DNA from: Octopus vulgaris | Taxonomy: Eukaryota | DNA: 64,000 bases | Direction of reading: 5' to 3' | Assembly: GCA_951406725.2 (NCBI GenBank) | Contig: OX597820.1 | Location: forward strand, 70,928,001 to 70,992,000 | Part shown: in pieces, positions 183-62,742 of the stretch | How positions within the stretch are numbered: position 1 is the stretch's first letter | Layout: each line of letters opens with the position of its first letter | The notes under the pieces: model-generated | What the model was told of the DNA's origin: nothing | Database searches by the model: none | What the model saw: only the letters and a program-made list of their open reading frames with translations | Program-made: the position numbers and the translations under genes

Positions 183-404
183 ATGAATGAATTATCCTTT
201 GTTTACCGTTAACATGGAAAATTCAATAAACAGTTACCAGGGTAGCAAAATTCACGCAAGTAACAAGGATGTAGTGACCTATTCAAAGGTAGAAACTCCG
301 GGTTAATGAGCAGTAATTTGTATAGTATAAGTAAATAAATGGAGTTGAACGCAGGTGTTATTCAAATTCTTTGAATAACACTTGTGTTCAACTCCATTTA
401 TTTA

Positions 405-457
<53 letters not shown>

Positions 458-481
458 TTTATTTAAAAGCAGCAGAAAATT

Positions 482-533
<52 letters not shown>

Positions 534-725
534 TTTGTTCCCCACCACCCCCATCACTTGACAACTGATGTTGTTGTGTTTACATCCATGTAACTTAGCT
601 ATTCAGCAAAAGAGACCCATAGAATAAGTACTAGGCTAACACAGAATAAGTCCTGGGGTCTATTTGTTTGACTTATGGCAGTGCTCCAGCATGGCTCAGT
701 CGAATGACAAACAAATAAAAGAAAT
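1..725 (+). mobile_element. SINE A split at its internal (TA)n by inserted sequence
   Basis: Head at 1-148, tail at 535-725; the 181-410 insert contains a hairpin. Confidence 0.8.
326..410. repeat. Near-perfect palindrome, 41 bp arms, 3 nt loop
   Basis: 326-366 versus 370-410, two mismatches. Confidence 0.95.
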
Positions 726-744
726 AAAAAATATTTATATATAT

Positions 745-1406
745 CTTTCATTTTGTATTTGTTTCAGTCATTAGACTGCGGTCATGTTGGAGCACCACCT
801 TTAGGAATTATTAGTTGAATGGATTGACCCCCAATACTAATTTTTCTTTTTAAGCCTGGTACTTATTTTATCACTCTCTTTTGCTGAACAGCTAAGTTAA
901 TGGGATGTAAACACACCAACACCAGTTGTCAAGTAGTGGCAGGGACAAACACACACTCACACACATGCTTATGCATATATACATTTACAAACATATATAT
1001 GACAGGCTTCTTTCAGTTCTATAAACATCTCCTTCAAGTAAAACCACCAATAGAAGAGAATATGACCAAAAATTGCGTGTACTCCATCCCATGCAGCTGT
1101 GGTAGGTTATAGAAAGGTGAAACATGCTGCCCCCTCAAAACAAGGGTAGACGAACATCGCAAAGCTGTGACACGAGGAAATATTTATAAACCAGGTATAG
1201 CTGATCATGTATGGAAAAATGGAGACCACCTCCCCCTGTGGGATGAAGTTAAAAAAATAATAGACAGAGAACACCACCGGAAAATACAAAGCACATACAC
1301 TAGGACACAACAACCTCCGAAGCAGACCGAGTGCAGATATGAATAGTGGTTAAGAGCGCTGGCTACTAACCCCAAGATTCCAAGTTCGATTCCAGGAAGT
1401 AACCAA

Positions 1407-1450
<44 letters not shown>

Positions 1451-1745
1451 CAACAACAACATCAAAAAATACATTAGGAATGAGAACCCAGGTTTGAAAT
1501 TTTCCCAAGACACCTGGTGAAGCCTGGAGGGTATATCAGCCAAAACATGTTAACAACAAACAAAATGAGGACAATTATCCATCAAATGTAAATAATGTAG
1601 GCTTCTTACAGTTTCCATCTTCCAAATCCAATCACATGGCTTTGGTCAGCTCAAGGCAATAGTAGAGGACACTTAACCCAAGGTGCCACTCTGTGGGACA
1701 GAACCTGCAACCATGTGCTTAGGAAACAAACACATCTATGCCTGT
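745..1745 (-). mobile_element. SINE A interrupted by the Penelope-like insertion
   Basis: Tail half at 745-1018 and head half at 1599-1745, with TSD. Confidence 0.75.
1019..1598 (+). mobile_element. Penelope-like element 3' fragment: GIY-YIG endonuclease remnant, tRNA-like segment and hammerhead-bearing tail; inserted in a SINE
   Basis: KHLLQVKPPIEENMTKNCVYSIPCSCGRL*KGETCCPLKTRVDEHRKAV...GIADHVW (GIY-YIG: VY...Y-x-GET...R-x-x-EH). 15 bp TSD aggcttctt(t/a)cagtt at 1004-1018 and 1599-1613. Confidence 0.85.
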
Positions 1746-1749
1746 ACCT

Positions 1750-1791
<42 letters not shown>

Positions 1792-2022
1792 TCACACAAA
1801 CACACTCTCACACAAACACACTCACACACACTCACATGCACACACACATACATACACACATGCATGTATACATACATACACACACACACATACTCACACA
1901 AACACAAATACGCATACACTCACATGCACACACACATGAACACACATACACACATACACACACACTCACACAAACACAAATACACACACACTCACATGCA
2001 CACATAAACACACACACACACA
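1750..2022. repeat. Degenerate (CA)n tract
   Basis: Direct reading. Confidence 0.95.
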
Positions 2023-2509
2023 TAAGAAAATAAGATGAAAAGAAATAAATGATCATCTTATGAAGTACATTAGATGATTGCTTATGTTTTTTGTCATCTC
2101 ATTTCCTTATTACTGCTCTGTACTCAACTTGCATCTTCTATTATAGCCCTAGGTCGACCAAAAGTGGATTTTGTAGATGAAAACTGAAAACCTATCATAT
2201 TCCTTTATTTCTTTAATTGTTCATGTCATTTGACTGTGGCAATGCAGGAGCGTTGCCTTGAAGGGATTTAGTCGAACAAATCGAGACCCGGGGACATATT
2301 TGTTAAGCCTAGTACTTATTCTATGATCTGTGTAAGCATTCAACTTGTTTGGGCACACTTACATTACAAAACAATTTTAGAATGACTTTTTCCTGTCAAA
2401 ACGCTAAAAGTAACTGAACAAAAAAAAATTAAAAACAAGCAAGATTCAACCAAATAAAAAAATAAACCCAACTACTAAGCAAACAAAGATGAACCATCAT
2501 ACTTCCATT

Positions 2510-2548
<39 letters not shown>

Positions 2549-2869
2549 AACACACACATACACACATATATTCACACAGAGTTGAAACGCTATTTGATTT
2601 ATTTTCTTCAGCATACAATTTTCATCATCTCACTACCTAGTATGAAATTACCCCTTCCTTCATTATTCATCTATTACCCCTTCTCATTCATAAACACAAG
2701 TAGATTATCTTGGTAACTATGGGAGCTATGAAAAAATACAAAGCCCAGCAATACCACCAGATTCTACACATCTGTGTAATTTTTCATGCAATTCCATGCA
2801 TCCGTTTGACCGTGAATCCCAAGACTAGAAAGAATCGCCCATGTCAAATTTATATGTATGTATGTATGT

Positions 2870-2936
<67 letters not shown>

Positions 2937-3302
2937 TTTGAGTAAACCTATCAATATATATATATATGTGTGTATGTATAATTGTTAAAGATGATATATA
3001 TATATATATATATCTTGGAAATCTGCAATGGCTCCATAACTCCATAACATCTTGGCTATAGTCTTGGAGACCTAGTAATCTGTTACAATGCTTATCTACC
3101 ATACCTAATCATTTAGATCACCTTTGAACTAAACCCCCATATTTTATTTATATGTGTATGCATGTATATATACACATACATACATACATACATATATATA
3201 TTTATAATAATAAGAGTGAAAAATTGAATATTAATTTGATTAATATCAATTTAAAACCAGTAGTCTAGCATATTAAAATCTGAAGATTCAGAAAAATTAT
3301 AT

Positions 3303-3544
3303 TACATACATATAAGAGGGATGATCACTACATGGACATTCATTATGCTAGAAGTAGACCTACTATGGTCTTACCACTAAGAAAGGAATTTTCTCAAGAA
3401 AATTTAGCAAGCGCCTGCTTGCTTACGTTCTGGCATTTGCTAAATTTTGTTGAAAACATTCCTTTCTTAGTGGTAAGACCATAGTGGATCTACTTTTAGC
3501 ATAATGAATGTCCATGTAGTGGTCATCCCTCTTATATGTGTGTA
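3303..3544. repeat. Inverted repeat, ~110 bp arms, 16 nt loop
   Basis: 3303-3415 versus 3432-3544. Confidence 0.95.
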
Positions 3545-3638
3545 TATATATATAGATTCAAATGAAAATGGTACCTAAGTTGATACACCAGAATTTAATA
3601 AGGTATTATCCATACAATTTCAAAATAAGGTGATTAAA

Positions 3639-3816
3639 ATCAAAATAAGCAACAAGAGACGTAATGCAGTACGATCGTTTCATGCAACTCCATTTAATTG
3701 AACAATACAATCATGCTCTACATTTTAAATTGATGTAGTGATTGCATTGTTCAATTAAATGGAGTTGCATGAAACGATTGTACTGCATTACCTCCAGATA
3801 TCCTTGTTCCTTATTT

Positions 3817-3820
<4 letters not shown>
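3639..3820. repeat. Inverted repeat, ~75 bp arms
   Basis: GTAATGCAGTACGATCGTTTCATGCAACTCCATTTAATTGAACAAT versus its reverse complement at ~3745-3791. Confidence 0.93.
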
Positions 3821-3865
<45 letters not shown>

Positions 3866-4053
3866 TAGACATTCCTAACACCAACTGCTTTGTATAGTGA
3901 TTTATATTAGGAAGGGCATCCAGCTGTAGAAACCATGCCAAAGCTGACGGTACAGCTTGGCACTCTCTTCTGGCTTGCAAAACCATCTAACCCATACCAC
4001 ATCATGGAAGACAAATGTTAAATGATGATAGTGACTATGATGATGATCATTAT

Positions 4054-4085
<32 letters not shown>

Positions 4086-4537
4086 TCATCATCACTGTCG
4101 TGTCATGTAAGATAATGTATTGAGTTTATATTAAGAAAGATTAAAAAAAAGTCAATAAGTATGTTGTCGAAAATGTGTAAAATACGATCTGTGTGCAAAG
4201 GTCGCCATATAATTATATACTAACGATATATAACAATTATAACAATTGCATTGTAGCTTAGCCATTGTAGCGATTAAAAACAAATATGGTCTGTTGTATT
4301 TGCTTTGTGATTATTTTGCAATAAAGAAATAGACAATTACACATTATTAGGTATCGATGTCTTTCATCGCACACCTGTGACTTATTAACTTGCTACAGAA
4401 CCTCGTAGCATCTGTGAGCTAGGAAAGATATATTGTTGTAGAGTAACAATAACCAGGTCAAAGATGAAATGCTTTGATAGTAAATAATGTACATTACTAC
4501 TACTATTTCTACTACTACTACTACTACTGTTATTATT

Positions 4538-4758
4538 AAGGTGGCGAACTGGCGGAATTGTTAGTACGCTGGACCAAAATCCTTAGTGGCATTTCGTTCG
4601 TCTTTACATTCTGAGTTCAAACTCTGCCATGGTCAACTTTGCCTTCCATCCTTTTGGGGTTGATAAATTAAGTTCCAGTGAAACACTGGGGGTGGGGTCA
4701 ATGCAATCGACTAGTCTCCTTCAACTAAATTTCAGGCAGTGTGCCTTTAATAGAAAGG

Positions 4759-4808
<50 letters not shown>

Positions 4809-4810
4809 TA
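4538..4810 (+). mobile_element. tRNA-derived SINE, family B, with (ATT)n tail
   Basis: CTGGCGGAATTGTTAG (A-box), GAGTTCAAACTC (B-box), core GTCAACTTTGCCTTCCATCCTTTTGGGGTTGATAAATTAAG. Confidence 0.8.
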
Positions 4811-4825
4811 CTACTATTACTACTC

Positions 4826-5198
4826 CCTTTTACTCTTTTACTTGTTTCCGTCATTTGACTGCGGCCATGCTGGAGCACTGCCTTTTAGTCAAGCAAATCA
4901 ACCCCCAGGACTTATTCTTTGGAAACCTAGTACTTATTCTATCGGTCTCTTTTGCTGAACCACTAAGTTACAAAGATGTAAATACACCAGTATCGGTTGT
5001 CAAGCGATGTTGCGGGGACAAACACAGACACAGAAACATATACACACACATACATATATACGACAGGCTTCTTTCAGTTTCCATCTACCAAATCCACTCA
5101 CAAGGCTTTGGTCGGCCAAGGCTATAGTTCAGTGAGAATGAACCCGGAATCATGTGGTTGGTAAGCAAGCTACTTACTACACAGCCACTCCTGCACCT
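4826..5198 (-). mobile_element. SINE A
   Basis: Reverse complement of 5905-6347 with a small deletion. Confidence 0.85.
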
Positions 5199-6810: not shown

Positions 6811-7314
6811 CAGACCTTTAAAGATTGTGTTTTCCCATCTTCTGAGGGAAAACACAATCTTTAAAGGTCTGAGGCTTACAACAACAATGTTCAGGTATAT
6901 TGAGATTTACATGCCACAGTCTCCTCCACTGAATTGGTGAGCAAGCCAACATTCCCTCTGAATGGGATGCCAGTTCATTGCAGAATTACTCATTTGCTGC
7001 TTTACAGCTGCGTGGACTGTGGCAACATGAAATGAAGTGTTTTGCTCTGGGAATTGAAACCATAATCTCATGGTTATGAGTGCAACATGCCTAACCAATA
7101 GGCCATGCACCTTCACTCACTCACACTGACACTCACACTGACACTCACACACACATACACGGGAGTGGTTGGTGTTAGGAAGGGCATCGAGCTGTAAAAT
7201 CCCTGCCAAAATAGATACAGTAGCCTAGGGCGGGTTTTTCTGCCTGGCCAGCTCCTGTCAGCCATCCTACCTATGGATGCATGGAAGATGGATGTTAAAC
7301 GATGATGATGATGA

Positions 7315-17339: not shown

Positions 17340-17421
17340 AATGAAATTGATAAGATAATCATGTATTCCTTGGTCATTTCTTATTACCACACTTTGTTCT
17401 GTATGTATATATTTATATATA

Positions 17422-18674
17422 CAGGGGTTGGACAAAATAATGGAAACACCTTAAAATTTCAAACAGATTTATTTTAGTATGGGGTAGGACAGCCTTTGTC
17501 AGTAATTGCAGCTTGAATTCTATGAAATATGGACTTGTACAAAGTTTGAATTGTTTCCAAAGGAATTTTTGTCCATTCTTCAGCTAAAACAATCTCCAGT
17601 TCTTGTAGTGATAGTGGTATAGGATAGCAACTCCTTACTTGTTTTTCTAAAATGTTCAATAATATTGAGTTCTGGGGACTGTAGAGGCAGGTAAGATGTT
17701 CAACTTCACTAGACTGTTCCTCGTGCCATTCAGTAACAACTTTGACTGTGTGAATTGGTGCATTATCATCCTGAAAGATTGGTGTTTCCCTCTGGAAACA
17801 GTTCCACAAACATAGGATAAATTTGAGCAGATAAAATGCTTAAATAGTCTTGACTATTAATTCTGCCATTAAGGGAAACCATTGGGCTGGTGGATTTCCA
17901 AGATATAGCTCCCCAGATAATCACAGATCCTCCTCCATGTTTAACAGTTGGAAGAAGGCAGTTTGGGTCAAATGCTTCTTTTGGCTGTCTCTACATGTAT
18001 CATGTATACTCAGCTGATGGTTGGAAATAAGGTAAAGGATGACTCATCCGAGAAAATAACATTCTTCCACTAGTTCTAGGGACCAATTCTGTAGGTCTTT
18101 ACTCCACTCTAACTGCTTTGCAACGTCTGTTTTTGAAAGTAGTGGTTTTCTGATTGCAACCCTCCTGTGAAATCCAGCTTTGTTTTTGTGGAAGCTGGCT
18201 TCTCGAGGTGGTCATTAAGCTCTGCAGAAATTTTGGGAGCTGTACTTTTGGGATCATTTCTAACAATTTGTGTAAGAGTCCGATGGTCCCTATCTGAAAG
18301 CTTTGTTTTTTTTTCCGGAGTTTTGTTTCGAAGAGGAGGTTTTTGCCTCTTTCTCAAAGGCTGTCATTACTTTCAAGACACTACTTCTTGATACACCAAA
18401 CATTTCAGCTGTTTTCGTTACGCTAGCACCTGCCATACGAGCACCAACCATTTGACCTCTTAAAAAGTCCAATAGATCTGTCATTTTAATGAATTCTAAT
18501 TACCTTTTTCTGATGATATCTGAAAAGAAACAGTAATTTTAGCAAAACATATTAAGCAACACTAATAATAAATCAAAAACCATAAAAATAAACAAGCTTT
18601 TGACAGTTTTATAGATATTTGAAAATTACGATGCTATGATGCTAGGTGTTTCCATTATTTTGTCCAACCCCCTG
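17422..18674 (-). mobile_element. Full-length Tc1-family DNA transposon with frameshifted transposase
   Basis: ~29 bp TIRs CAGGGGTTGGACAAAATAATGGAAACACC at both ends (right copy has one extra C), flanked by TA and TG. Transposase pieces on -: MTDLLDFLRGQMVGARMAGASVTKTAEMFGVSRS (HTH), VIFSDESS, FQDDNAPIH, ...GCPTPY*. Confidence 0.95.
17474..18484 (-). pseudogene. Tc1 transposase pseudogene
   Basis: Three ORF fragments (18290-18484, 18109-18357, 17474-17809) split by frameshifts and stops; catalytic motifs SDES and QDDNA recognisable. Confidence 0.9.
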
Positions 18675-18946
18675 TGTATATAAATATAAGTATAGCTATA
18701 TAGATACATAGATATACATCCACACTGCATGCACACACACATACACACATACACATTAACTCTGTGCTTAAAAGTGAAGAGAACAATATTTTACATGTCT
18801 GCAGCAAGCTGCACTCTCTTCCTGATGACCTCACATAACAACCCCAAAACAGCTGGACTAACACACCTCAAAGAAGACCTGGATGCAAAATGTTCAGCAT
18901 CCCAGGAAAAGACTCTGCATGGGTATGTTTACGAAAGACAGTAATA

Positions 18947-21318: not shown

Positions 21319-21887
21319 GGCTTCTTTCAATTTCTGTCTACCAAATTGGCTCACAAGGCTTTGGGTGGCCTGAAGCTACAGTAGAAGACACTTGCCCAAG
21401 GTGCCACTGAACCCAAAACCATGGGGTTGAGAAGCTAGCTTCTTACCACCCACCCACAATGAGCATCTTTCACTTTCCGTCTACCAAATCCACTCACAAG
21501 TCTTTGGTCAGCCCAGGGCAATAGTATAGAAGACTTGCCCAAAGTTCCATGCAGTGGAACAGAACCTTTAACCATGTTGTTGGGAAGCAAGCTTCTCGCC
21601 CACACAGCTACACTGTATCAAGCAATGCATGAGTAGGCTCACATTCATTAATAACCATATGCTACGATTCTGTAGTTTTGTCTCTATCAATTTTTTTCTA
21701 ATATGCTGACGTTGCTGTCAAAATTGTACTTACTCTGCTTTCAGTTTCATCCTGTTTTACTTAACAACAAGGAAGTAAATGTTGATTAATGAAATCATAT
21801 ATGTCTTTCTTCATATTTATTAATTTATTCTGTTTATTTATGTATTTTATATTTGTTAATTAATTTATCTTTTTTTGTATTACTTAG

Positions 21888-22083
21888 GCATTCATTGGAT
21901 AGTCTCCAAAAGAATCTGCATGCTGTTAACGATGAACTAGATCGCAAAAACAATTCACTGTTGCTGGATAAACGCTGCATGGATGTTAGAGAGCGTTTGA
22001 AAACTCAACCTAAGACAACCACAGAAAGAAACATTACCATGACTGGATTAGTAAGAGATAAACCTGATATTTTAGCTGTTTAA
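21888..22083 (+). CDS. TEKT2: Terminal coding exon of a tektin (tektin-2 / tektin-B1-like); upstream exons not found in the window
   Basis: Polypyrimidine acceptor ttttttgtattacttag|g at 21887/21888 (phase 2). Translation HSLDSLQKNLHAVNDELDRKNNSLLLDKRCMDVRERLKTQPKTTTERNITMTGLVRDKPDILAV* matches the tektin C-terminal pattern K-x-NS-x-x-LD-x-x-CMD-x-R-x-x-L, closest to tektin-2. Stop TAA at 22081-22083, AATAAA downstream. Paralogue assignment is from memory. Confidence 0.82.
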
Positions 22084-23573: not shown

Positions 23574-24943
23574 ATGTGTATCTTCTGTCTTTCATCTTGT
23601 TTCAGTCAGTGGACTGCGACCATGCTGGGGCATTGCCTCGAAGGGTTTAGTCAAACAAATCAACCCCAGTCCTTATTTCATATTTCTCGAGTTTGGTTCT
23701 TATTCTGTTGGGTTCTTTTCTAGAAACACTAAGTCATGAGGATGTAAACAAACCAACGCCAGTTGTCAATCCGCACTTAGGGACAAACAAACACACACAC
23801 ATACACACTCACATATATATATCATCATCATTGTCATCGTCATCATCATCATCATCATCATCATTTAACATCTGTTTTCCAAGCTGGCATAGGTTGGACA
23901 GTTTGAGGGGAGCTGGTAAGGCCAGGGGTTGCACCAGACCCCATTGTCTGTTCTGGCATGGTTTCTGGGGCTGGATGTCCTTCCTAACAAATATACAGAT
24001 TTACATATGTATGTATATGTATGTATGTATATATATATATATATATATATACATATATATACATACATATATATATATATATATATACACACACATATAT
24101 ATATACAATAGGTTTCCATACAGTTTCCACCCACCAAATTCACTCAAGATGCATTGATCACTCTGGGGCTGTAGTAGATGACACATGCTCAAGTTGCTAC
24201 ATATAAGTATATACATAGGCATAGGCGTGGCTGTGTTGTAAGAAGCAAGCTTCCCAACCACATGGTTCTGGGTTCACTCCCACTGTGTAGCACCTTGGAC
24301 AAGTGTCTTCTACTATATGTCTACTATAACCTCAAGCCAACCAAAGCCTTGCGAGCAGGTTTGGTAGAGAGAAACTGAAAGAAGCCTGTCGTATATATAT
24401 ATATATATATATATAATTAATCAAAGGGAATACTAAGTATGACTACCTGCAGGAAATAACAGTCAAAACTCTTATTTAAATTGCCAAAATACACTGATAA
24501 TAACTACAGAAATCAACCATCTGAAGGCAAACAGGCTAAGACAATCTCTCAGCATACATTCAAGTATTTGGACTCATGTTGACTGGTGTTATTACACTAG
24601 ATAATAACAGAGTCAATGACATCTTTGCAAATTATTTTTTTTAAATTATTTTCTCATGAATTATTTGCTCCATATTGAAATTATGTATCTATATTTAATC
24701 AAATATGTCCCTTGGAAACAAGGTATACTGGATATCAGATAAGTGCTCTTGGTATGAGACATATCTAAAAGATATTTAGAGATTCCATGAGAGCGAGTGT
24801 ATATTATAGAATAAAAATGTAGGAAAGTTATATCTTAAAAATCACGGTAGAGATAAATACATAAAAAGCAATATTGCATTAATAAATAAATAAATAACGT
24901 ACAGCTATGATCATTAAAGATATTTTTTTAAAAGTTTTGAAAG

Positions 24944-25034
24944 TTCTTATGATCATTTCAAAAATATACTGCCCCTCAAAATGAAATCTACAGTTGATAA
25001 GCATCGTTGGGAAGTATATCTACTCATCAGAGAA
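24944..25034 (-). ncRNA. Minimal type I hammerhead ribozyme motif (core intact)
   Basis: Minus strand: TTCT CTGATGA GTAGATATACT...AGTATATTTTT GAAA TGATCA TA AGAA. Stem I TTCT/AGAA, ~11 bp stem II with wobbles and one mismatch, palindromic stem III ATGATCAT, cleavage triplet AUA. Confidence 0.75.
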
Positions 25035-25206
25035 AAGGATGAATTTCAGTGGAAGAAATCAAATGAGGGAAATGTTATTTCAAAATTTTTAGCTCAAAAT
25101 TATACCAACACAGATTTATACCAATAATTTTTTTAAACAACACCTTTCTCATTCAATTTTAAATATCATTTTCCTCATTCGATTTCCTTCACTGAAATTC
25201 ATTCTT

Positions 25207-25297
25207 TTCTCTCATGAGTGGATATACTTCCCAACGATGCTTATCGACTTTAGATTTCATTTTGAGAGGTAGTATATTCATGAAACGATCATAAGAA
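25207..25297 (+). ncRNA. Minimal type I hammerhead ribozyme motif (G5>C, probably inactive)
   Basis: TTCT CTCATGA GTGGATATACT...AGTATATTCAT GAAA CGATCA TA AGAA; inverted twin of 24944-25034. Confidence 0.7.
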
Positions 25298-25408
25298 CTT
25301 ACAAAACTTTTTTTAAAGATATTTCTAATGATTATAGCTGTACTTTGTTTTTATCTCTTTTATGATTTTTAAGATATAAATTTTCCTACTTTTTACTCTA
25401 TAATATAC

Positions 25409-25448
<40 letters not shown>

Positions 25449-25455
25449 ATGTATA

Positions 25456-25697
25456 CAGGGGCTGGACAAAATAATGGAAACACATAAAAATTTCCGACAA
25501 ATTTATTTTAATATGGGGTAAGACCACCTTCGGCAGTGATTACAGCTTGAATTCTATGAGGTTTGGACTCATACAAAGTTTGAATTTTTTCCAAAGGAAT
25601 TTTTGTCCATTCTTCAGCTAAAATAGTTTCCAGTTCTTGTAGTGATGGTGGTGGAGGATATCGACTCCTTACTTGTTTTTCTAAAATGCACCCCAAA
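25456..25697 (-). mobile_element. Truncated 3' end of the same Tc1 family
   Basis: TA + CAGGGGCTGGACAAAATAATGGAAACAC TIR; encodes ILEKQVRSRYPPPPSLQELETILAEEWTKIP...GGLTPY*. Confidence 0.9.
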
Positions 25698-26128
25698 TGT
25701 TCAGCAAGAGAGACCGATAGAATAACTACTAGGCTAACAGAGAATAAGTCCTTGCGTTGATTTGTTTGATGAAAAGGCAGTGCTCCAGCATGGCCACAAT
25801 CAGATGACTGAAACAAGTAAAAGAAAAATATATATCTGTATATGTGTTTCTATATAGTTTCACTTATAGGTACAAAAAGGAGTCAAGCTCTGCAAGGAGT
25901 AGACAGCCACCATATACTTCTACCATAATTCCATTGATATCTGGGACTGAAAACACAGCTACAATTGCTACTTTGCTTGTGAGCCAAGCCATCATTGTTA
26001 AAACCTATAGCCAGCTTTAACCTCTGTCATTGTATGTAGGAATAGTCACATAGTTGTATTGAAGTATTAAAACCTGTTGTAATCATCACATTTTTATATA
26101 TGTCAGGTAATATATTGTCCAATGTATC

Positions 26129-26745
26129 TTAAACTCTTTAGCATTCAGACTACTCTGTCAAATGTAATACTTATTTATTCACATTGTTTTGAATTAAGCA
26201 TGCATTATTTCTTAGGTTTGAGATTTCAATAATGTGATTCTTTTATTCTTTTACTTGTTTCAGTCATTTGACTGTGGCCATGCTGGAGCAACGCCTTTAG
26301 TCAAGCAAATCGATCCCAGGACTTATTCTTTGTAAGCCTAGTACTTATTCTATCAGTCTCTTTGGCTGAACTGCTAAGTTATGGGGAAGTAAACACACCA
26401 GCATTGGTTGTCAAGCAATGTTGGGGGGACAAACACAAACACACAAATATATACGCACACATACATATATACGATGGGCTTCTTTCAGTTTCTGTCTACC
26501 AAATCCACTCACAAGGCTTTGGTCGGCCCGAGGCTATAGTAGAAGACACTTGCCACGCAGTGGGACTGAACCCAGATCCCTTTGGTTGGTAAGCAAGCTA
26601 CTTACCACACAGCCACTCCTGCACCTATGATTGTTGATTTTTAGAAAGACATTGTAGGGTAGGTGTGAATGGCAGGATCTGGCTGGTTTGGACATAAAAC
26701 AGGAAGAATTTTTGTGTCAGATAACGCCAATGTGAATGCTTACAA
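26129..26745. mobile_element. Second TTAA-type MITE family, split by a SINE insertion at 26240-26626
   Basis: Starts ttaaactctttagcattcagactactctgtcaaatgtaat (a similar start recurs at 63965-64000) and ends ...gaatgcttac. TGATT is duplicated around the SINE. Confidence 0.5.
26240..26626 (-). mobile_element. SINE A
   Basis: Full-length reverse-complement match. Confidence 0.85.
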
Positions 26746-33260: not shown

Positions 33261-33445
33261 AGAGAAACAACAAGGTGACTATATTCTGGAGTGTAGCAAT
33301 TCATAGAAACAAGGAGATTAAAGAAAATCATCCAAATATTATTGTCAAAGATCATCGAGAAAAGAAATTTCTCTTCATTGAGGAATTAATTCCAATAAAC
33401 GACAATATGTCTCTGAAAGAAATAAAGAAACTATGTAAATATATT
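33261..33445 (+). mobile_element. RLE-type LINE endonuclease fragment (partly folded back)
   Basis: NNKVTIFWSVAIHRNKEIKENHPNIIVKDHREKKFLFIEELIPINDNMSLKEIKKLCKY, a decayed form of ILWD...NRPDIVV...KE-x-EK-x-x-KY. Confidence 0.72.
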
Positions 33446-33743
33446 TAGTTTCTTCATAGCAATAATAATTAAAAATTTTGGCTGAAGAATCATATGTAAT
33501 CTATTTATCTATTTCATATTTATTTTGTAGATAATAGAAATCATAAAAATCTATGAAATAGAATGAAAATAGATTACATATAATTCTACAGTTGAATTTT
33601 AATTATTATTTCTATGAAGAAACTAAATATATTTGCATAGTTTCTTGATTTTTATAGATGTATTGTTGTTTATTGGAATTTGTTCCTCAATCAAGAGAAA
33701 TTTCTTTTCCTGATGATCTTTGACAATAGCATCTGGATGATTT
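33325..33743. repeat. Imperfect inverted repeat, ~200 bp arms
   Basis: 33325-33526 versus 33545-33743. Confidence 0.9.
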
Positions 33744-35326: not shown

Positions 35327-36390
35327 TTTCAAAGAAAGAGGCTTGGAGATGCCATTGTGAAAGACTGCTGAATGTGGAGAATGAATGGGAGGAGGAGAGC
35401 CTGCCAAATGTTGACCCAGTTAAAGGACCTGGTACCTGAATCAACAGCACCCTGGTAGATAAAGCAATCAAGGATATGAAGTCAGGGAAAGACCATGGCC
35501 CATCAGGAATCACTGCTGAGATGTTTAAAATATCTGGTGGTGTGGGTTGTAGTCTAGTCACCTGTATTGTAAATCAGGTAGATGACAAAGGAGTCATACC
35601 CAATGACTGGTGTAGCAGCACCATAACCAACTGCTACAAAGGTAAATGTGATGCTTTAGACAGAAATAACTACAGGGGTATTACATTGCTGGATCAGGTG
35701 ATGAAGATCATGGAGGGGGTCATAGCCCAACCATTTAGGGAGAGTATTAGTGTAGATGAGATGCAGTTTGGTTTTGTGCCAGGTAGAAGCACCACTGATG
35801 CTATATATCTGGTAAGGCAACTGCAGGAGAAATACCTAACCAAAGATAAACCTCTGTACTTAGCTTTTGTTGACTTGGAGAAAGCTTTTGACAGGGTACC
35901 CTGATCCCTTATCTGGTAGTCAATGTAGAAACTAGGGATAGACGAGTGGTTAGTAAGAACTGTACAGGCCCTGTACAGGGATACTGTCAGTAAGGTATGG
36001 GTTGGCAATGAGTATAGTGAAAAATTCCAGGTAGAAGTAGGGGTTCATGAAGGATCAGTCCTCAGCCCCCTCTTATTCATCATAGTCCTCTAGGCAATAA
36101 CAGAGGAATTCAAGACAGGCTGCCCCTGAGAGATCCTCTATGCTGTTGACCTTGCTTTCATAACTGAATCACTACCAGAACTAGAGAACAAATTTCAGCT
36201 GTGGAAGCAAAGTCTAGAATCAAAGGGCCTTAGAGTCAATGTAGCTAAAAACAAAGTCTTAGTATATAGGAAGGTGGACAAATCACAAACCCCTTCAGGT
36301 AGATGGCCCTGCTCAATCTGTAGAAAAGGCGTAGGTAGAAACTCCAACTGACGTTAAACGATGATGATGATGATGATGATAATGATGATA
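35327..36390 (+). mobile_element. RTE-clade LINE RT fragment inserted in a SINE's internal microsatellite
   Basis: MKSGKDHGPSGITAEM...NYRGITLL...QFGFVPGRSTTDAI...AFVDLEKAFDRVP, followed by decayed GSVLSP and YAVD motifs with stops. Ends in a (GAT)n tail. SINE head at 35149-35320, SINE tail at 36395-36590. Confidence 0.92.
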
Positions 36391-47483: not shown

Positions 47484-47684
47484 TCAAACTGTTGGCAATT
47501 TTCCAGCAATTTCTTGCACTAATTCACTTGGAGTTATTGATCTTGATAATAGATTCCTTTGGGTTTCCTTTGACTTCAATGCAAAAACTAACTTTCTGGA
47601 AATTTTTTGGTACTGATTATTAACCAGCTTTTTACAGTGGGAAAACACACTGGATTCAAGATCACAAACCAATTTAGAGTTACT
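47484..47684 (-). CDS. TCEANC2: Terminal coding exon of TCEANC2 (TFIIS central-domain-like region)
   Basis: Acceptor tttcttactttctaattacag|agt, phase 0, matching the upstream donor. SNSKLVCDLESSVFSHCKKLVNNQYQKISRKLVFALKSKETQRNLLSRSITPSELVQEIAGKLPTV* aligns to the TCEANC2 C-terminus ([33 protein letters not shown]...). Intron is 47685-61760. Confidence 0.9.
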   Translation of the reverse strand, partial: SNSKLVCDLESSVFSHCKKLVNNQYQKISRKLVFALKSKETQRNLLSRSITPSELVQEIAGKLPTV

Positions 47685-48362
47685 CTGTAATTAGAAAGTA
47701 AGAAATAATAATTTTTTAAAAATGTAAAATGATATTAAAAATACTATATGACACCACCACCAGCTCCACCATCACCATCAATGTCATTTATTCTCATCTG
47801 TCAATTCCAAAACCACATTAAATTTTCACAAAACTATTATACGCATACACAACAAAAAAAAAGAAAAATGAAAAATAAAAAGCTCTTAATTAAGAACTTG
47901 AAAGTATTCAAAACATCTTTAAATTACTGAAGTTTAAAATAATTCACAATGTTGCTATAACTTCCATATACATATATAAATGCATAATACATATACATAA
48001 TTACAGTCATATGTGTGTGTATGTGTATAGGCATAGATGAAATTACTGCAACACACTTTAGGAAACCAGCCAACCATCTCATTACCTACCAATCTGGCGA
48101 ATACACAAGTCAGATTATTTTCTCATTAGAAAAAGGAACAGAGAGGCTACAGTAAATATGAAAACCTTTCCATCTGAAGAATGCACTACACAATATAGAT
48201 AAGTGACTAGTGACTTTCAGAGTCAGATATGTGTAAACACAGAAACAAAAAACAACATGGAAATGGAAGAAATGGACACTAAAAGATCCTGCAATTGTGA
48301 AGAGATTTAAATACCTATAACACAGATGACAATTGGGAAGCTCTATGAAATAATCTGTTTAA

Positions 48363-51939: not shown

Positions 51940-51988
<49 letters not shown>

Positions 51989-53184
51989 GTTGGACAGGCT
52001 GGCATGGGTTGAATACCAGCCCATCCAACCCATGCCAGACTGTCCAACCCATATCAATTGTCCAACCCATGCCAGCCCGACCAACCCATGCCAGCATCGA
52101 AAGCGGATGCTAAATGATGATGATGATGATGATGATGATATATATACACACACTTACACATATATATAAACATGCATATGTGTATGTGCATGTACATTTA
52201 GTAATTAGACACATGTGAGCCTCACAAGGTATGTCTTAATTCATTAATTGAGACATTTTTTTACAGAGAGTGCTCTAGAACTAATTAAAAATCAGTAGTG
52301 ACTATGATCAATGGTAACATGAAATAAATAAACAGAAAAGAATTCAAATATACCTAAAAAGAAAACGAACTTATACTCAGCTAACTAATGGTAACCATCT
52401 GAGGCATCTAACTATTTCTGAGTTAAGTGACTTCTTCAACCAGTGTAGATAAAAAGCAGGTTCCTGTGAAGCCTTGCTGTAAATATTACTCAACAGCCAT
52501 AACTGGTTTTAATATAAAGCAACCGAAGCATACAAGAAGAATGAAGCGAGAATATTTATATACAATCCCCTCTACCAAAAAAACAAAAAAAAAAAAAACA
52601 GAAAAGAACATACACACACACACACACAAACCATATGCAAATATGTTAGCTGATCCACCTGTTATATCTGAGATTAGCAAGTTTGAAATTACATAAATAG
52701 TTACAAAAACATCAAATTTTATTAACAGGTAAATAATTTTTAAAACCTTTTCTTTGAACAAAAATGTTCATTTTACTTCCCCTTAAATATGATATATTAC
52801 TTTGAGGTAAAAATAAAAAGCTTTTATCGTTATATTCTGTATTATTAAAACACATAAATTTAAATTTTAATGAAAAATATAATTGGAGCTTTGGATTCCA
52901 GTCAAGCAGTAACTTTTAACTGTACAAACCGTGCTGATATTCTTTTTGTCTTTTATGCTTTACCTGTTTTAGTCTCTGGACTGTGGCCATGCTGGGCTAC
53001 CACCTTGGAGGGTTTTAGTCAGAGAAACTTATGCTTTTAAGGATCAGTACTCATTCTATCAGTGTTTATTGCTGCTAGCAATAGGTTTGTGTTTTCTCTC
53101 AGGAGACAGAAAGTGTTGCATCCTTTATAGTGAGAATGAGAAGAGACAGAGCAAGAGAGAAAAAAAGAGAAAGTGAGAGAAAGA

Positions 53185-53257
<73 letters not shown>

Positions 53258-54624
53258 GATGATGTGCAAGTTTGAAGTTCAAATACAATGTGTGTATATG
53301 TGTGTATGGTGTGTGTGTGTGTGTATAAAGTAAACACAAATGCCATTTAAAATTTATGACAACTGTTTTGGTAGAATTTATTTATTTAATGCAGTCCTAA
53401 AAGATTATATCATAATTCATAATCCAATGTCATCAGGTAAAATTTTGGGAAGGTAAGGTTTGAGAGAGAGAGAGAGAGAGAGTCTAACCCATGCAAGGAT
53501 GTGAAAATGGATATGAAACAAATGAACAAACATGCACAGCAGACATAGAAGCATTAGCTCCTGTTACAATTAGTTGCAAAATCACATAATAGTACATAAA
53601 AGATACCGGAGTCCATTTCATCAGACTCCACTGATTTGTTGTATACCTAGCTCACTCATGTTGTGAACTTAGGCACAAAAAAAAACTTGAAGGTTTAGTA
53701 GCGACTCCAAGAGACCTCCAAGAGACCTTAGTGGGCCTCTACATTAGATAAATGTTGCTTGATTACAAGTATTTGCTTTGAAAACCTGATTTTATATGCT
53801 AGTAAAGACTGAACAGTGAGGTAGAATTTTAAGGCTAGATGCATCTCTTGTCAGCAACCCTTATCTGTTTTTCAAGTTAGGGAGGTTTTCTTCTACAGAT
53901 CTTTGAAAGTACGGAACAACCACTCATAATACCAACAAGGTATGTCACCATTATCAGCATTTCAGTCATGCTGTGACAAGCATGAAATGATAACATTCAT
54001 ACACATTCACATACACACATGATGAGCTTCCTACAGTTTCCTACTTGTTAATTCACTCAGAAGGCATCAGTGAGCTAAGGGCTATGGTGAAAGATACTTG
54101 CCACAGGATCTATGGAATAGGATAAAACTTGAAACTATTTAATCACATTATATATAATCTCATTAATGAAGCATAGTTTAACTGTTGCTTCAGAGCTTAG
54201 AATAACTAAAGGAATATACAGGTTTTTCTATAAATGAACACTAATTGGCATAATAACTTAAAAGAAAGAGCAGGAAAAATTTACTCAGGAACACTTGATG
54301 AATAATTTAAAATTTCTTAATAGTGCAGGCATAGCTCCCAATCATGAGGTCTTGAATTCAGTCCTACTTCACAGTACCTTGAGGGTTTTCTACAAATGGC
54401 CCAAGCCAACTAAAGCATTGTGAGTGGATTTGGTAGATGGAAACTGAAAGAAACCTGTATATTATATATATTATACATATATATAATTTAAATAGAGGTT
54501 AAAAAAACAACCTCAAGAGATAGAAAATACCCAATGAATTGCTGGTTTGTTACACATTATTTTGTTGTGAATAGTAATATTCCTAAAATATTGGTTTAAA
54601 TATAAATCTTGGCTTATAAATATT

Positions 54625-54783
54625 CAAATTAAAATTCAGAAAGTGAAGTAGTGTTAATATAATTTATTAACTGCAAAAATTCAACATGTGCACTTACAGC
54701 TGTTTCGGTTTTGAAAATGTTAAATTTTTAGCTGTTCATAAATTATATTAACACTACTTCTCCATTTTCTGTATTTTAATTTG
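54625..54783. repeat. Inverted repeat, ~65 bp arms
   Basis: 54625-54687 versus 54717-54783; GAAGTAGTGTTAATATAATTTAT is a perfect core. Confidence 0.9.
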
Positions 54784-55449
54784 TATGTGTGTGTATATAT
54801 TTTTTTATTTTTTTATTTATCTAGTTTCAGCTCACTATCTGTGGTCATGCTGGGGCACCATATATATATATACATACATGATATTATTCAGTTGTATTTC
54901 AAGATTTCTGGCCAAGAGAGAAACAGCTGGTTTCTAACCTAGATCTAAGACTCCTTCATTGGCATTTCAACATCAACAGGGTAGTTGTGCATGTTTGTGT
55001 GTATGTGTGCAATATTTAAAGTCAGTGCATGTGCAGAGTCATGTGTGTGTGTGTGTGTATGTGTATACATGTATGTGTTTGTAACTAGATATCATGTGAT
55101 GGTTGAAAATCATCACATCCACCACTAACACCACCACCATCATCATCATCATGCAAGTGAGACTCTTCATTTTTAGTTTCAGATGAAAACGTATCTGACT
55201 AACAGGTGATAGTCAGCAACAGCAAGGGCATCCAGCTGTAAAAATTTGCACCTGAACAAATTCTGGCCAACCCATGAAAGAATGGAAAAACTGGAATTTA
55301 AATTATGATGATGTTGATGATGATGGTTTACTACATCAAGTATGTTAGCATCCATTGTCTTATCAACATTTCCTGCAGCAGGCGTACCTTGGTAATAACA
55401 ATTTTCTTCACTTATTCTCTCATATATATATAAAAGTATATATGTTTGT

Positions 55450-60980: not shown

Positions 60981-61760
60981 ATATGTATATTATTTTGTTA
61001 TAAATATTCACAAATCTGATTCTGCATAATATATATATATATATATATATACAAAAAAAAACAATAGTTAAATCAGTGTTAATATATTATAGAAAAGGAG
61101 CAGCTTATACGCCAACTGGAAATAATTAGAAGGGAAAGAAAAAAAATCAATGTTATTTATATTATTTTGATTCTTTTGCCAAGAATAGGAGACAACTTTG
61201 GACAGGTTTCATTCTTATATTATGACCATCTTTGGTGAAGCATATATATGAAAAGTAGGTTAGGTACCACTCATTTCATGCTTCAGTGGTTAGTAGTAAT
61301 AAGATTAGTCAGCTGTAAAATCAACTGCATCAACATTATGTAAATTACCAAATTTCATAAAACCATCCGATTAATGTTAACAGAAAAAAAAAAATGAATG
61401 TAAAATAGTTATAAAAGAAGGCAAATTTTATTATTCAAGTTAAGCACTCACTACACACACACACACATACAGAGTCAAGCAATTTATTTGCTATAAAATC
61501 TCTATGCAGCTACTTGATGTGTAAGAAGTAGTAGCTAAGTCTTCTTCAAAACACACCCTGTTGTCTTAAAAACAGAAAAAACACTGGATACAGTTCTTTT
61601 ATATACACTGGTTAATAATGGCTGTTTTTCTATACACTATGTATAGAATAAAGGTGGGATGATTATAGTAGGAATGTTTTTGATCAGAGCTGACTTGGGT
61701 TAAACGACAACAACATTAACAAGAGCAATCCGTTAGAAAATTAATTTAAGTTTTAATTAC

Positions 61761-61954
61761 CTCCAATTCAAAAGATTGAGCAATGAATTTCTTAACAGTT
61801 TCTCTTTTTTTCGTTGTCACTAAGTCATATTTTACTTCCACTGGAACGAGATTATTTTGAGTTTTGAAAAAGTTGTTCCATTCTTTACAAACTCTCTGAG
61901 CCAGTTGTCTAACTTTAGTATCTTTGTGGCAGCGTAACCGTTTAACTATGCGAC
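61761..61954 (-). CDS. TCEANC2: Penultimate coding exon of TCEANC2 (transcription elongation factor A N-terminal and central domain-containing protein 2)
   Basis: Minus strand: acceptor ctctatttcgacag|gt, donor gag|gtaatt. 194 nt, phase 1 to phase 0, open: (G)RIVKRLRCHKDTKVRQLAQRVCKEWNNFFKTQNNLVPVEVKYDLVTTKKRETVKKFIAQSFELE. Colinear with the vertebrate TCEANC2 segment [27 protein letters not shown]...IEVRSD...LSEALELK as recalled. Not present in the ORF track. Confidence 0.9.
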
Positions 61955-62742
61955 CTGTCGAAATAGAGATCGAAATTCTTTTGATAGTTCTTTTGAAAGC
62001 CTTTTTTAAAACAAAACAGATAAAAAAAAAAAATTAAAAAGAAAGAAGAAACAAGGAAAATAAAAAGATAAAAGAAAATAAAATTAGTCTCTATTTTATT
62101 TTTTTTACAAAAAATTTAGCCTCATATCACGCACATGAAAAAAGATAAGGAAAATAATGTAAAATAATATAACTTAAAGAAGAACTGAAAATTTTAAAAA
62201 AATACGATAATAAAACTCTATCAACAACAACAACAACAACAATAATAATTATCAATATAATAATAATTACATTGAGCATGATTGGATCTCAAATAAATAA
62301 TAACAATAACAGTAACCACAATCAGCACAATGTGTGGGTTTAGCAATGAGCTAGTATGCTGATCCTGTTCATTTCTTCTATTGATAGTGTCAAAAATATG
62401 TAAATTAGTTCATATTTAAAAAGGAAAAATGGAATAGTGTTCTAAATACAAACCCCTATCATGTACACACGCAATGCACATTAGTTTGGTGTTGCTACTT
62501 GTTTGAACTGCACCAGTTATTTTGCTGGAATTATGAACAATTCAATAAATTTGAAAGACACAGAATATTAATATTATTAACAAAAGAGAAGCAAAGATGA
62601 TGAACAAGGATTGCTTCCAGAATATTAGAATATGATGGAACCAGCAGAACTAGAAGGTACAAATATGCTAATAATAAAAAAAAAGAAAGTAAAAACAAAA
62701 TTTAATTATCAAATTTACACTGTCTTAGCAAAACATGTTTAA

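Follow-up and report, generated by a model that had tools for sequence, protein, structure and literature searches.

A probable truncated Penelope-like element insertion with a hammerhead motif in each of two head-to-head copies in an octopus (TA)n tract

Insertions of Penelope-like elements (PLEs) are described as highly 5′-truncated, often carrying an inverted 5′-truncated copy at the 5′ end, with a tail of 30–40 bp at one end and an insertion bias for (TA)n (PMC8557442). Head-to-head is reported as the commonest PLE order in PMC3846280, according to which trans-mobilisation in rotifers also extends to pLTRs on their own. In PMC11167929 the tail is ascribed to reverse transcription starting at two internal sites, and an anole hammerhead is reported to cleave only with protein and to be dispensable for insertion in vitro. 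In Schistosoma mansoni, dual minimal hammerheads linked to truncated PLEs are described on opposite strands, 100–700 bp apart, without monomer cleavage and with low dimer cleavage (PMC4209133), and the Repbase element Penelope-13_HM is entered in the PMC8557442 supplement with a (TA)n target, an inverted truncated copy and one hammerhead per strand. Octopus genomes are known to contain PLEs (PMC8967140), 31 PLE families with recent insertions are given for O. vulgaris (PMC13282606), and the four Octopus families listed in the PMC8557442 supplement, i.e. Hydra-1_Obim, Naiad_Obim, Naiad_Ovul and Naiad_Omin, all prefer (TA)n. Tandem retrozymes, in turn, have been argued to be non-autonomous PLE derivatives (bioRxiv 10.64898/2026.07.22.740005).

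In the window, i.e. the whole 64-kb stretch of octopus DNA that was analysed, a fold-back had been placed by a previous sequence-only reading at 24798..25409, as a unit of 600 bp. Its inverted arms are real: the inner inverted repeat (24930–25084 and 25157–25311) is 155 nt long and 89% complementary, the outer arms (24798–24861 and 25346–25409) are 81% complementary, and an indel of 35 nt separates the inner from the outer arm alignment. Folded as RNA, the whole fold-back reached −298.7 kcal/mol (z −25.7), and none of 20 shuffled sequences was equally stable. The left end, however, was found about 104 bp further out, at approximately 24694, and the unit is asymmetric. No further copies of the arm were found across the 64-kb window. 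Between the inner arms there are 17 differences over 155 places, including 11 transitions and 3 differences at CpG, and if the arms were identical at insertion, the clock implied by PMC13282606 (0.09 in 25 My) would very loosely suggest an insertion age of about 16 My.

The extent of each copy was read from paralogs. Out of 24 sequencing runs screened, five contained at least half of the sampled words, and four of these were aligned to 24416–25156 at 80% likeness, while shares of 0.04–0.14 in unaligned runs were left out of account; paralogs are visible in these alignments as summed letters, and 40 of the 141 variant rows were examined. Paralogs covered 24691–25156 continuously, their letters differed from the window at 24715, 24725, 24734, 24763, 24797 and 24799, and depth was flat across 24797 (summed depth 219 at 24785, 24797, 24799 and 24807 in run X2). 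Because depth remains steady at this point, the family continues about 104 bp leftward, as far as a short TA-like remnant around position 24690. The left copy (24694–25084, minus strand), as delimited by arm alignment and paralog depth, is an inverted 5′-truncated family end with the longer 3′ end, and is likely a pLTR. Its one-sided 3′ extension (24694–24797, minus strand, left end approximate) is tail-like and is missing from the right copy; according to the contig alignment the extension is the rule among paralogs, and the right copy may have lost it secondarily.

The 72-nt “spacer” between the inner arms is, judged from paralog cover, likely the upstream part of the right copy (25085–25398, plus strand), which has the longer 5′ end and stops at (TA)n. 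Paralogs extend over the spacer, which continues the right arm collinearly, so that the right copy would reach further in the 5′ direction and the left copy further in the 3′ direction. Paralog contigs also joined 25084 to 25154/25156 on opposite strands; an explanation of these joints by other fold-back copies was rejected, since copies collinear with the right arm give an identical signal.

Each arm contains the layout of a type I hammerhead, as the sequence-only reading had proposed, but the term “minimal” that it used is misleading, as the distance from core to GAAA is 64 nt, made up of an 11-bp stem II and a 42-nt loop. The left motif (24944–25034, minus strand), supported by descriptor and folding, reads from 25034 to 24944 in the order TTCT, CTGATGA, stem II, GAAA, palindrome ATGATCAT, A, AGAA. 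Stem I pairs 25034–25031 with 24947–24944 (4 bp), the core occupies 25030–25024, stem II pairs 25023–25013 with 24970–24960 (11 positions), and GAAA at 24959–24956 is followed by the palindromic stem III, with the predicted cut after 24948 at the triplet AUA. All core nucleotides are kept in this copy, as had been claimed, but in its stem II the second position is a mismatched U-U. The right motif (25207–25297, plus strand), likewise seen by descriptor and folding, shares this layout, including the 4-bp stem I, the 42-nt loop and the palindromic stem III, but has a fully paired stem II of 11 bp and the core CTCATGA, i.e. a G5>C change at 25213. G5 is an invariant catalytic base of the hammerhead, and the invariant core (CUGANGA, GAAA, UH) is accordingly present in the left copy and broken in the right. 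The two motifs face outwards, one on each strand, at a distance of about 170 bp. The type I hammerhead lies near the 3′ end, and its palindromic stem III is a point on which the earlier reading was borne out.

The descriptor that recovers these motifs was relaxed after the motif had been seen; an earlier, stricter minimal-hammerhead descriptor gave no match in the window, the left copy included. In its relaxed form it matched the left copy only in the 64 kb, and both copies once G5 was free to vary, and in windows simulated with a third-order Markov model it matched in 1 of 150, or in 0 of 150 when a palindromic stem III was included. An Rfam search, which had been suggested together with the descriptor as a check, matched no hammerhead family in two scans at E≤10, and motif pattern scans of metagenome contigs and viral contigs gave no matches. 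That such a hammerhead fold appeared in only one of 150 simulated windows speaks against a MITE or fold-back DNA transposon, in which long terminal inverted repeats would carry hammerhead-like sequence by chance. The length of about 600 bp, the lack of an ORF and the TA-rich flank would suit an element of that kind, and other symmetric fold-backs exist in the window, e.g. at 3298–3550. Nevertheless, the family runs past the left “end” at steady depth, so that the two ends are not a matched pair of termini, and a search for a target-site duplication gave nothing readable beyond TA-rich 6-mers, which makes a MITE origin very unlikely.

The repeat is a moderately repeated family in contigs of three Octopus-like organisms. 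Summed contig depth, which is not a copy number, was 200–5,100 at 24691–25156 versus about 10,000–184,000 at 24416–24690, a contrast that points to two different repeats, and individual contigs among those listed had a depth of about 15–65. An alternative letter at 25021, which repairs stem II, was carried by 33, 52 and 40 contigs in three DNA runs, and the family is thus multi-copy, where a single-copy arm would have contradicted the earlier reading. Common paralog letters at 24961 and 24962 likewise repair stem II in all three DNA runs. For stem III, previously reconstructed as CGATCG, C at 24955 was dominant in three of three runs, but G at 24950 in one only (327/378), being found in about half in the other two (241/566 and 336/672). 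The common paralog letters therefore restore the stem II pairs, and stem III in part, as read from summed letters and not from a single-copy alignment. The right arm carried the paralogs' common letter at 8 of 9 places hand-picked from the 40 rows listed, which indicates that the stem II flaws of the left copy are due to decay; the C11.1 place (24960) was absent among these 40 of 141 variant rows, and a G-U at this position is also seen in PLE hammerheads already listed, Penelope-13_HM among them.

The locus is common to organism B, which departs from the window at 2 of 256 positions in one stretch and at 3 of 163 in another. In organism D, one contig spanned 24668–24897 with 12 differences, its flank being too short to bridge the locus. 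Run X9, which is RNA only by guess, contained one contig over 24908–25059 with 2 differences and a depth of 12, which was not counted as expression or editing, and no RNA run carrying the sequence was found among the runs listed.

The host of the insertion is an abundant repeat with internal (TA)n, many copies of which are present in the window, and which, as split at 24214–25828, we take to be a SINE. Its 5′ half (24214–24415, plus strand) consists of SINE-like sequence at 24214–24391 and (TA)n to 24415; the 3′ half (25699–25828, plus strand) was identified by alignment, with 26243–26629 as unbroken reference copy. The middle of the SINE has lost about 70 bp. On the right, the fold-back adjoins a (TA)n(TG)n tract (25399–25452, plus strand), the rest of the SINE microsatellite, followed by an end fragment of a Tc1/mariner-type transposon (25453–25688, plus strand) that is 88% identical to 17419–17654. 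That stretch belongs to a TIR-bounded, decayed Tc1/mariner copy at 17408–18688, with DDE_3 and HTH_Tnp_Tc3_2 matches below the Pfam cut-offs.

On the left, a second and far more abundant repeat in two pieces (24416–24684), recognised from depth and the loose-end table, stands between the SINE and the fold-back. Its paralogs have loose ends at 24576/24587 that read GAAA-CCGG-TC on the minus strand, and in other copies the two pieces are joined on opposite strands; by this sequence pattern, it probably represents a further hammerhead family of which the 3′ half is seen, cut at the GAAA box. The fold-back had been described as lodged in the (TA)n tract of a SINE, and a SINE is indeed split around the unit, but 24798 does not touch (TA)n, about 270 bp of the other repeat intervene on the left, and the fold-back adjoins (TA)n on the right side only. 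With the unit lying within the (TA)n of the split SINE and a short TA-like remnant at its left end, (TA)n as target is supported at this single locus.

The locus is a fold-back of 5′-to-5′ polarity, as given by the hammerheads, which is asymmetric, belongs to a repeated family, is decayed in both copies, and includes an inverted 5′-truncated copy joined head to head. With a probability of roughly 0.8, it represents a decayed, dead-on-arrival insertion of PLE terminal repeats, i.e. two short 3′-end copies back to back in the (TA)n of a SINE. We infer that the family belongs to the PLEs, a link that the earlier reading had drawn and that published PLE layouts support (PMC3846280, PMC8557442). 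The insertion would have begun with a nick made in (TA)n by a GIY-YIG endonuclease, the reverse transcriptase would have halted early in copying the 3′ end of the parent RNA, and a second copy, inverted, more 5′-truncated and with a longer 3′ end, would have become attached at the 5′ junction, presumably by template switch; the hammerhead motif of each copy would have served the parent element as a dimer. If the copies were inserted in truncated form, the hairpin would be a by-product of insertion, and a linked RT/GIY-YIG ORF would not be expected to persist.

GIY-YIG was found neither at the locus nor among the 139 of 307 reading frames scanned. Two candidates for parts of a parent element were rejected. 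That the extension encodes the N-terminus of a parent ORF was unsupported, as the word index gave no candidates and HMMER gave two repeat-protein artefacts. An RVT_1 fragment at 35440–35901 lies 10 kb away and is not linked; it presumably belongs to an RTE-class LINE.

The fold-back had previously been regarded as a distinct, non-coding “ribozyme element”. Both its asymmetry and the extension on one side are what an ordinary truncated insertion of a PLE would show, and pairs of hammerheads on opposite strands 100–700 bp apart were already published (PMC4209133), so that this claim was not upheld. The related possibility, that PLE proteins move the complete fold-back as one unit of a non-autonomous family, in place of fresh truncations of a coding parent, is unlikely, as the arms differ at both ends in the way that truncation predicts. 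The coding parent was not found and tens of paralogous contigs were, which would suit such a unit, as would the mobilisation of rotifer pLTRs in trans (PMC3846280) and the argued derivation of retrozymes from PLEs (bioRxiv 10.64898/2026.07.22.740005). Yet the joints seen in paralogs would equally come from a simple copy running collinearly with the right arm, no second fold-back copy is shown by them, and retrozymes are head-to-tail tandems, unlike the octopus pair.

In whole-element folds of either strand, 6 of the 7 core positions were at least 94% paired, and folds constrained to the hammerhead were less stable than the minimum by 8.0 and 9.5 kcal/mol. In read-through RNA, the core is thus predicted to be locked in a duplex with the other arm and the ribozyme to be blocked. 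Since the motifs are on opposite strands, a single RNA cannot hold both in sense, which closes the tandem-dimer route. The self-duplex of stem III was predicted at −5.6 and −4.8. Dimer action in trans is still conceivable for the left copy, because an axolotl hammerhead with a U-U basal in stem II retained cleavage (PMC7229834).

The element lies 2.6 kb beyond the stop codon of tektin-2, the last exon of which (21886–22080, plus strand) is 92% identical to that of Octopus bimaculoides and so marks the window as Octopus-like. On the minus strand, two exon pieces at 61749–62033 and 47487–47690 encode the N-terminal and central domains of TFIIS, and are likely of a TCEANC-type gene converging on tektin-2. 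An exapted locus, in which a duplex in tektin-2 read-through RNA is edited or diced, or in which the left hammerhead cuts the host transcript, would be in line with the stable duplex, with the presence of the locus in organism B (2/256 and 3/163 differences) and with the tolerance of U-U in the axolotl motif (PMC7229834). It is nonetheless highly improbable: the drift of the left stem II from the family and the loss of G5 on the right have the look of neutral decay, pairing of the core with the other arm is predicted, and several AATAAA/ATTAAA signals follow the tektin stop codon ahead of the element. From the folding prediction, a role of the hairpin as a dsRNA, ADAR or small-RNA substrate is possible.

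A second, unrelated head-to-head fold-back was observed at 3551–3820, with arms within 3639–3820 (81%). Each arm has the 3′ half of a hammerhead (GAAA, CGATCG, UA, CTGC), the palindrome being unbroken at 3681, on the minus strand; the left arm has an extension of about 88 bp, (TA)n is present at both ends, and the CUGANGA half is missing. At four of the five ends inspected in the two fold-backs and the abundant repeat (24694–24700, 24416–24424, 3812–3820 and 3553–3561), TTTGAT or TTTGAAT stands just before a TA run, and the Naiad_Obim consensus finishes in TTTGAT plus AT (PMC8557442 supplement); the resemblance may be fortuitous, or may mark a motif used in common for priming or targeting. Further local fold-backs (77–91%) were seen at 3298–3550, 33325–33743, 321–414, 54622–54786, 6811–6871 and 51983–52054, in none of which the descriptor found a hammerhead; the one at 3298–3550 is symmetric, TA-flanked and MITE-like.

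Three hammerhead-type families are thereby present in one 64-kb window, two of them as 3′ halves only, which suggests that such remnants are common there. Hammerheads with a long stem II escape Rfam and short-spacer descriptors, and hammerhead counts in cephalopods are thus likely too low. The octopus is a heavily editing animal, and some of these fold-backs, if transcribed, would be natural ADAR substrates. That uncatalogued Octopus PLE families with long stem II and loop II exist, of which the present one would be a non-coding fold-back unit spreading into (TA)n and feeding the A-to-I editing and small-RNA machinery, is in its entirety quite unlikely.

A search of the literature, with Dfam and Repbase outside its scope, found no description of the family, and four short family motifs had no match among the Octopus entries of the PMC8557442 supplement, where line breaks may hide matches. 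The four Octopus PLE families listed there share with the present one the host genus and, as judged from this locus, the (TA)n preference, but the Hydra-1_Obim hammerhead and the 3′ end of Naiad_Obim, compared by eye, are unlike the octopus motif. Non-LTR retrozymes (PMC7229834; bioRxiv 10.64898/2026.07.22.740005) are likewise non-coding and PLE-related and have a type I hammerhead; they are, however, head-to-tail tandems that yield circular RNA, and tandem units of that kind are absent here, where only an inverted pair is found.

With the complex insertions described for EN+ PLEs (PMC3846280, PMC8557442), the locus has in common the head-to-head polarity, the unequal 5′ ends, the extension of one arm, the (TA)n target and the lack of a readable target-site duplication; it differs by having no ORF and by an extension of about 104 bp instead of the published 30–40 bp. 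The locus fits the published PLE layout point by point, except for the longer extension, and most likely is a truncated EN+ PLE insertion. The motif resembles metazoan PLE hammerheads as published in its CUGAUGA/GAAA core, 4-bp stem I and palindromic stem III, the S. mansoni duals and Penelope-13_HM in having two motifs on opposite strands, and Penelope-13_HM also in the G-U closing stem II. The PMC8557442 descriptor allows 7–17 nt where the octopus motif spans 64 nt between the core halves, and the nearest long loops, those of the plant elements PLE-X1_sMoe and PLE-X1_sTam, are of about 30 nt against 42 nt in octopus. The family thus appears to be an unlisted Octopus PLE-type family, in which the layout itself is already known from other animals and the 64-nt span between the core halves is the distinctive trait.
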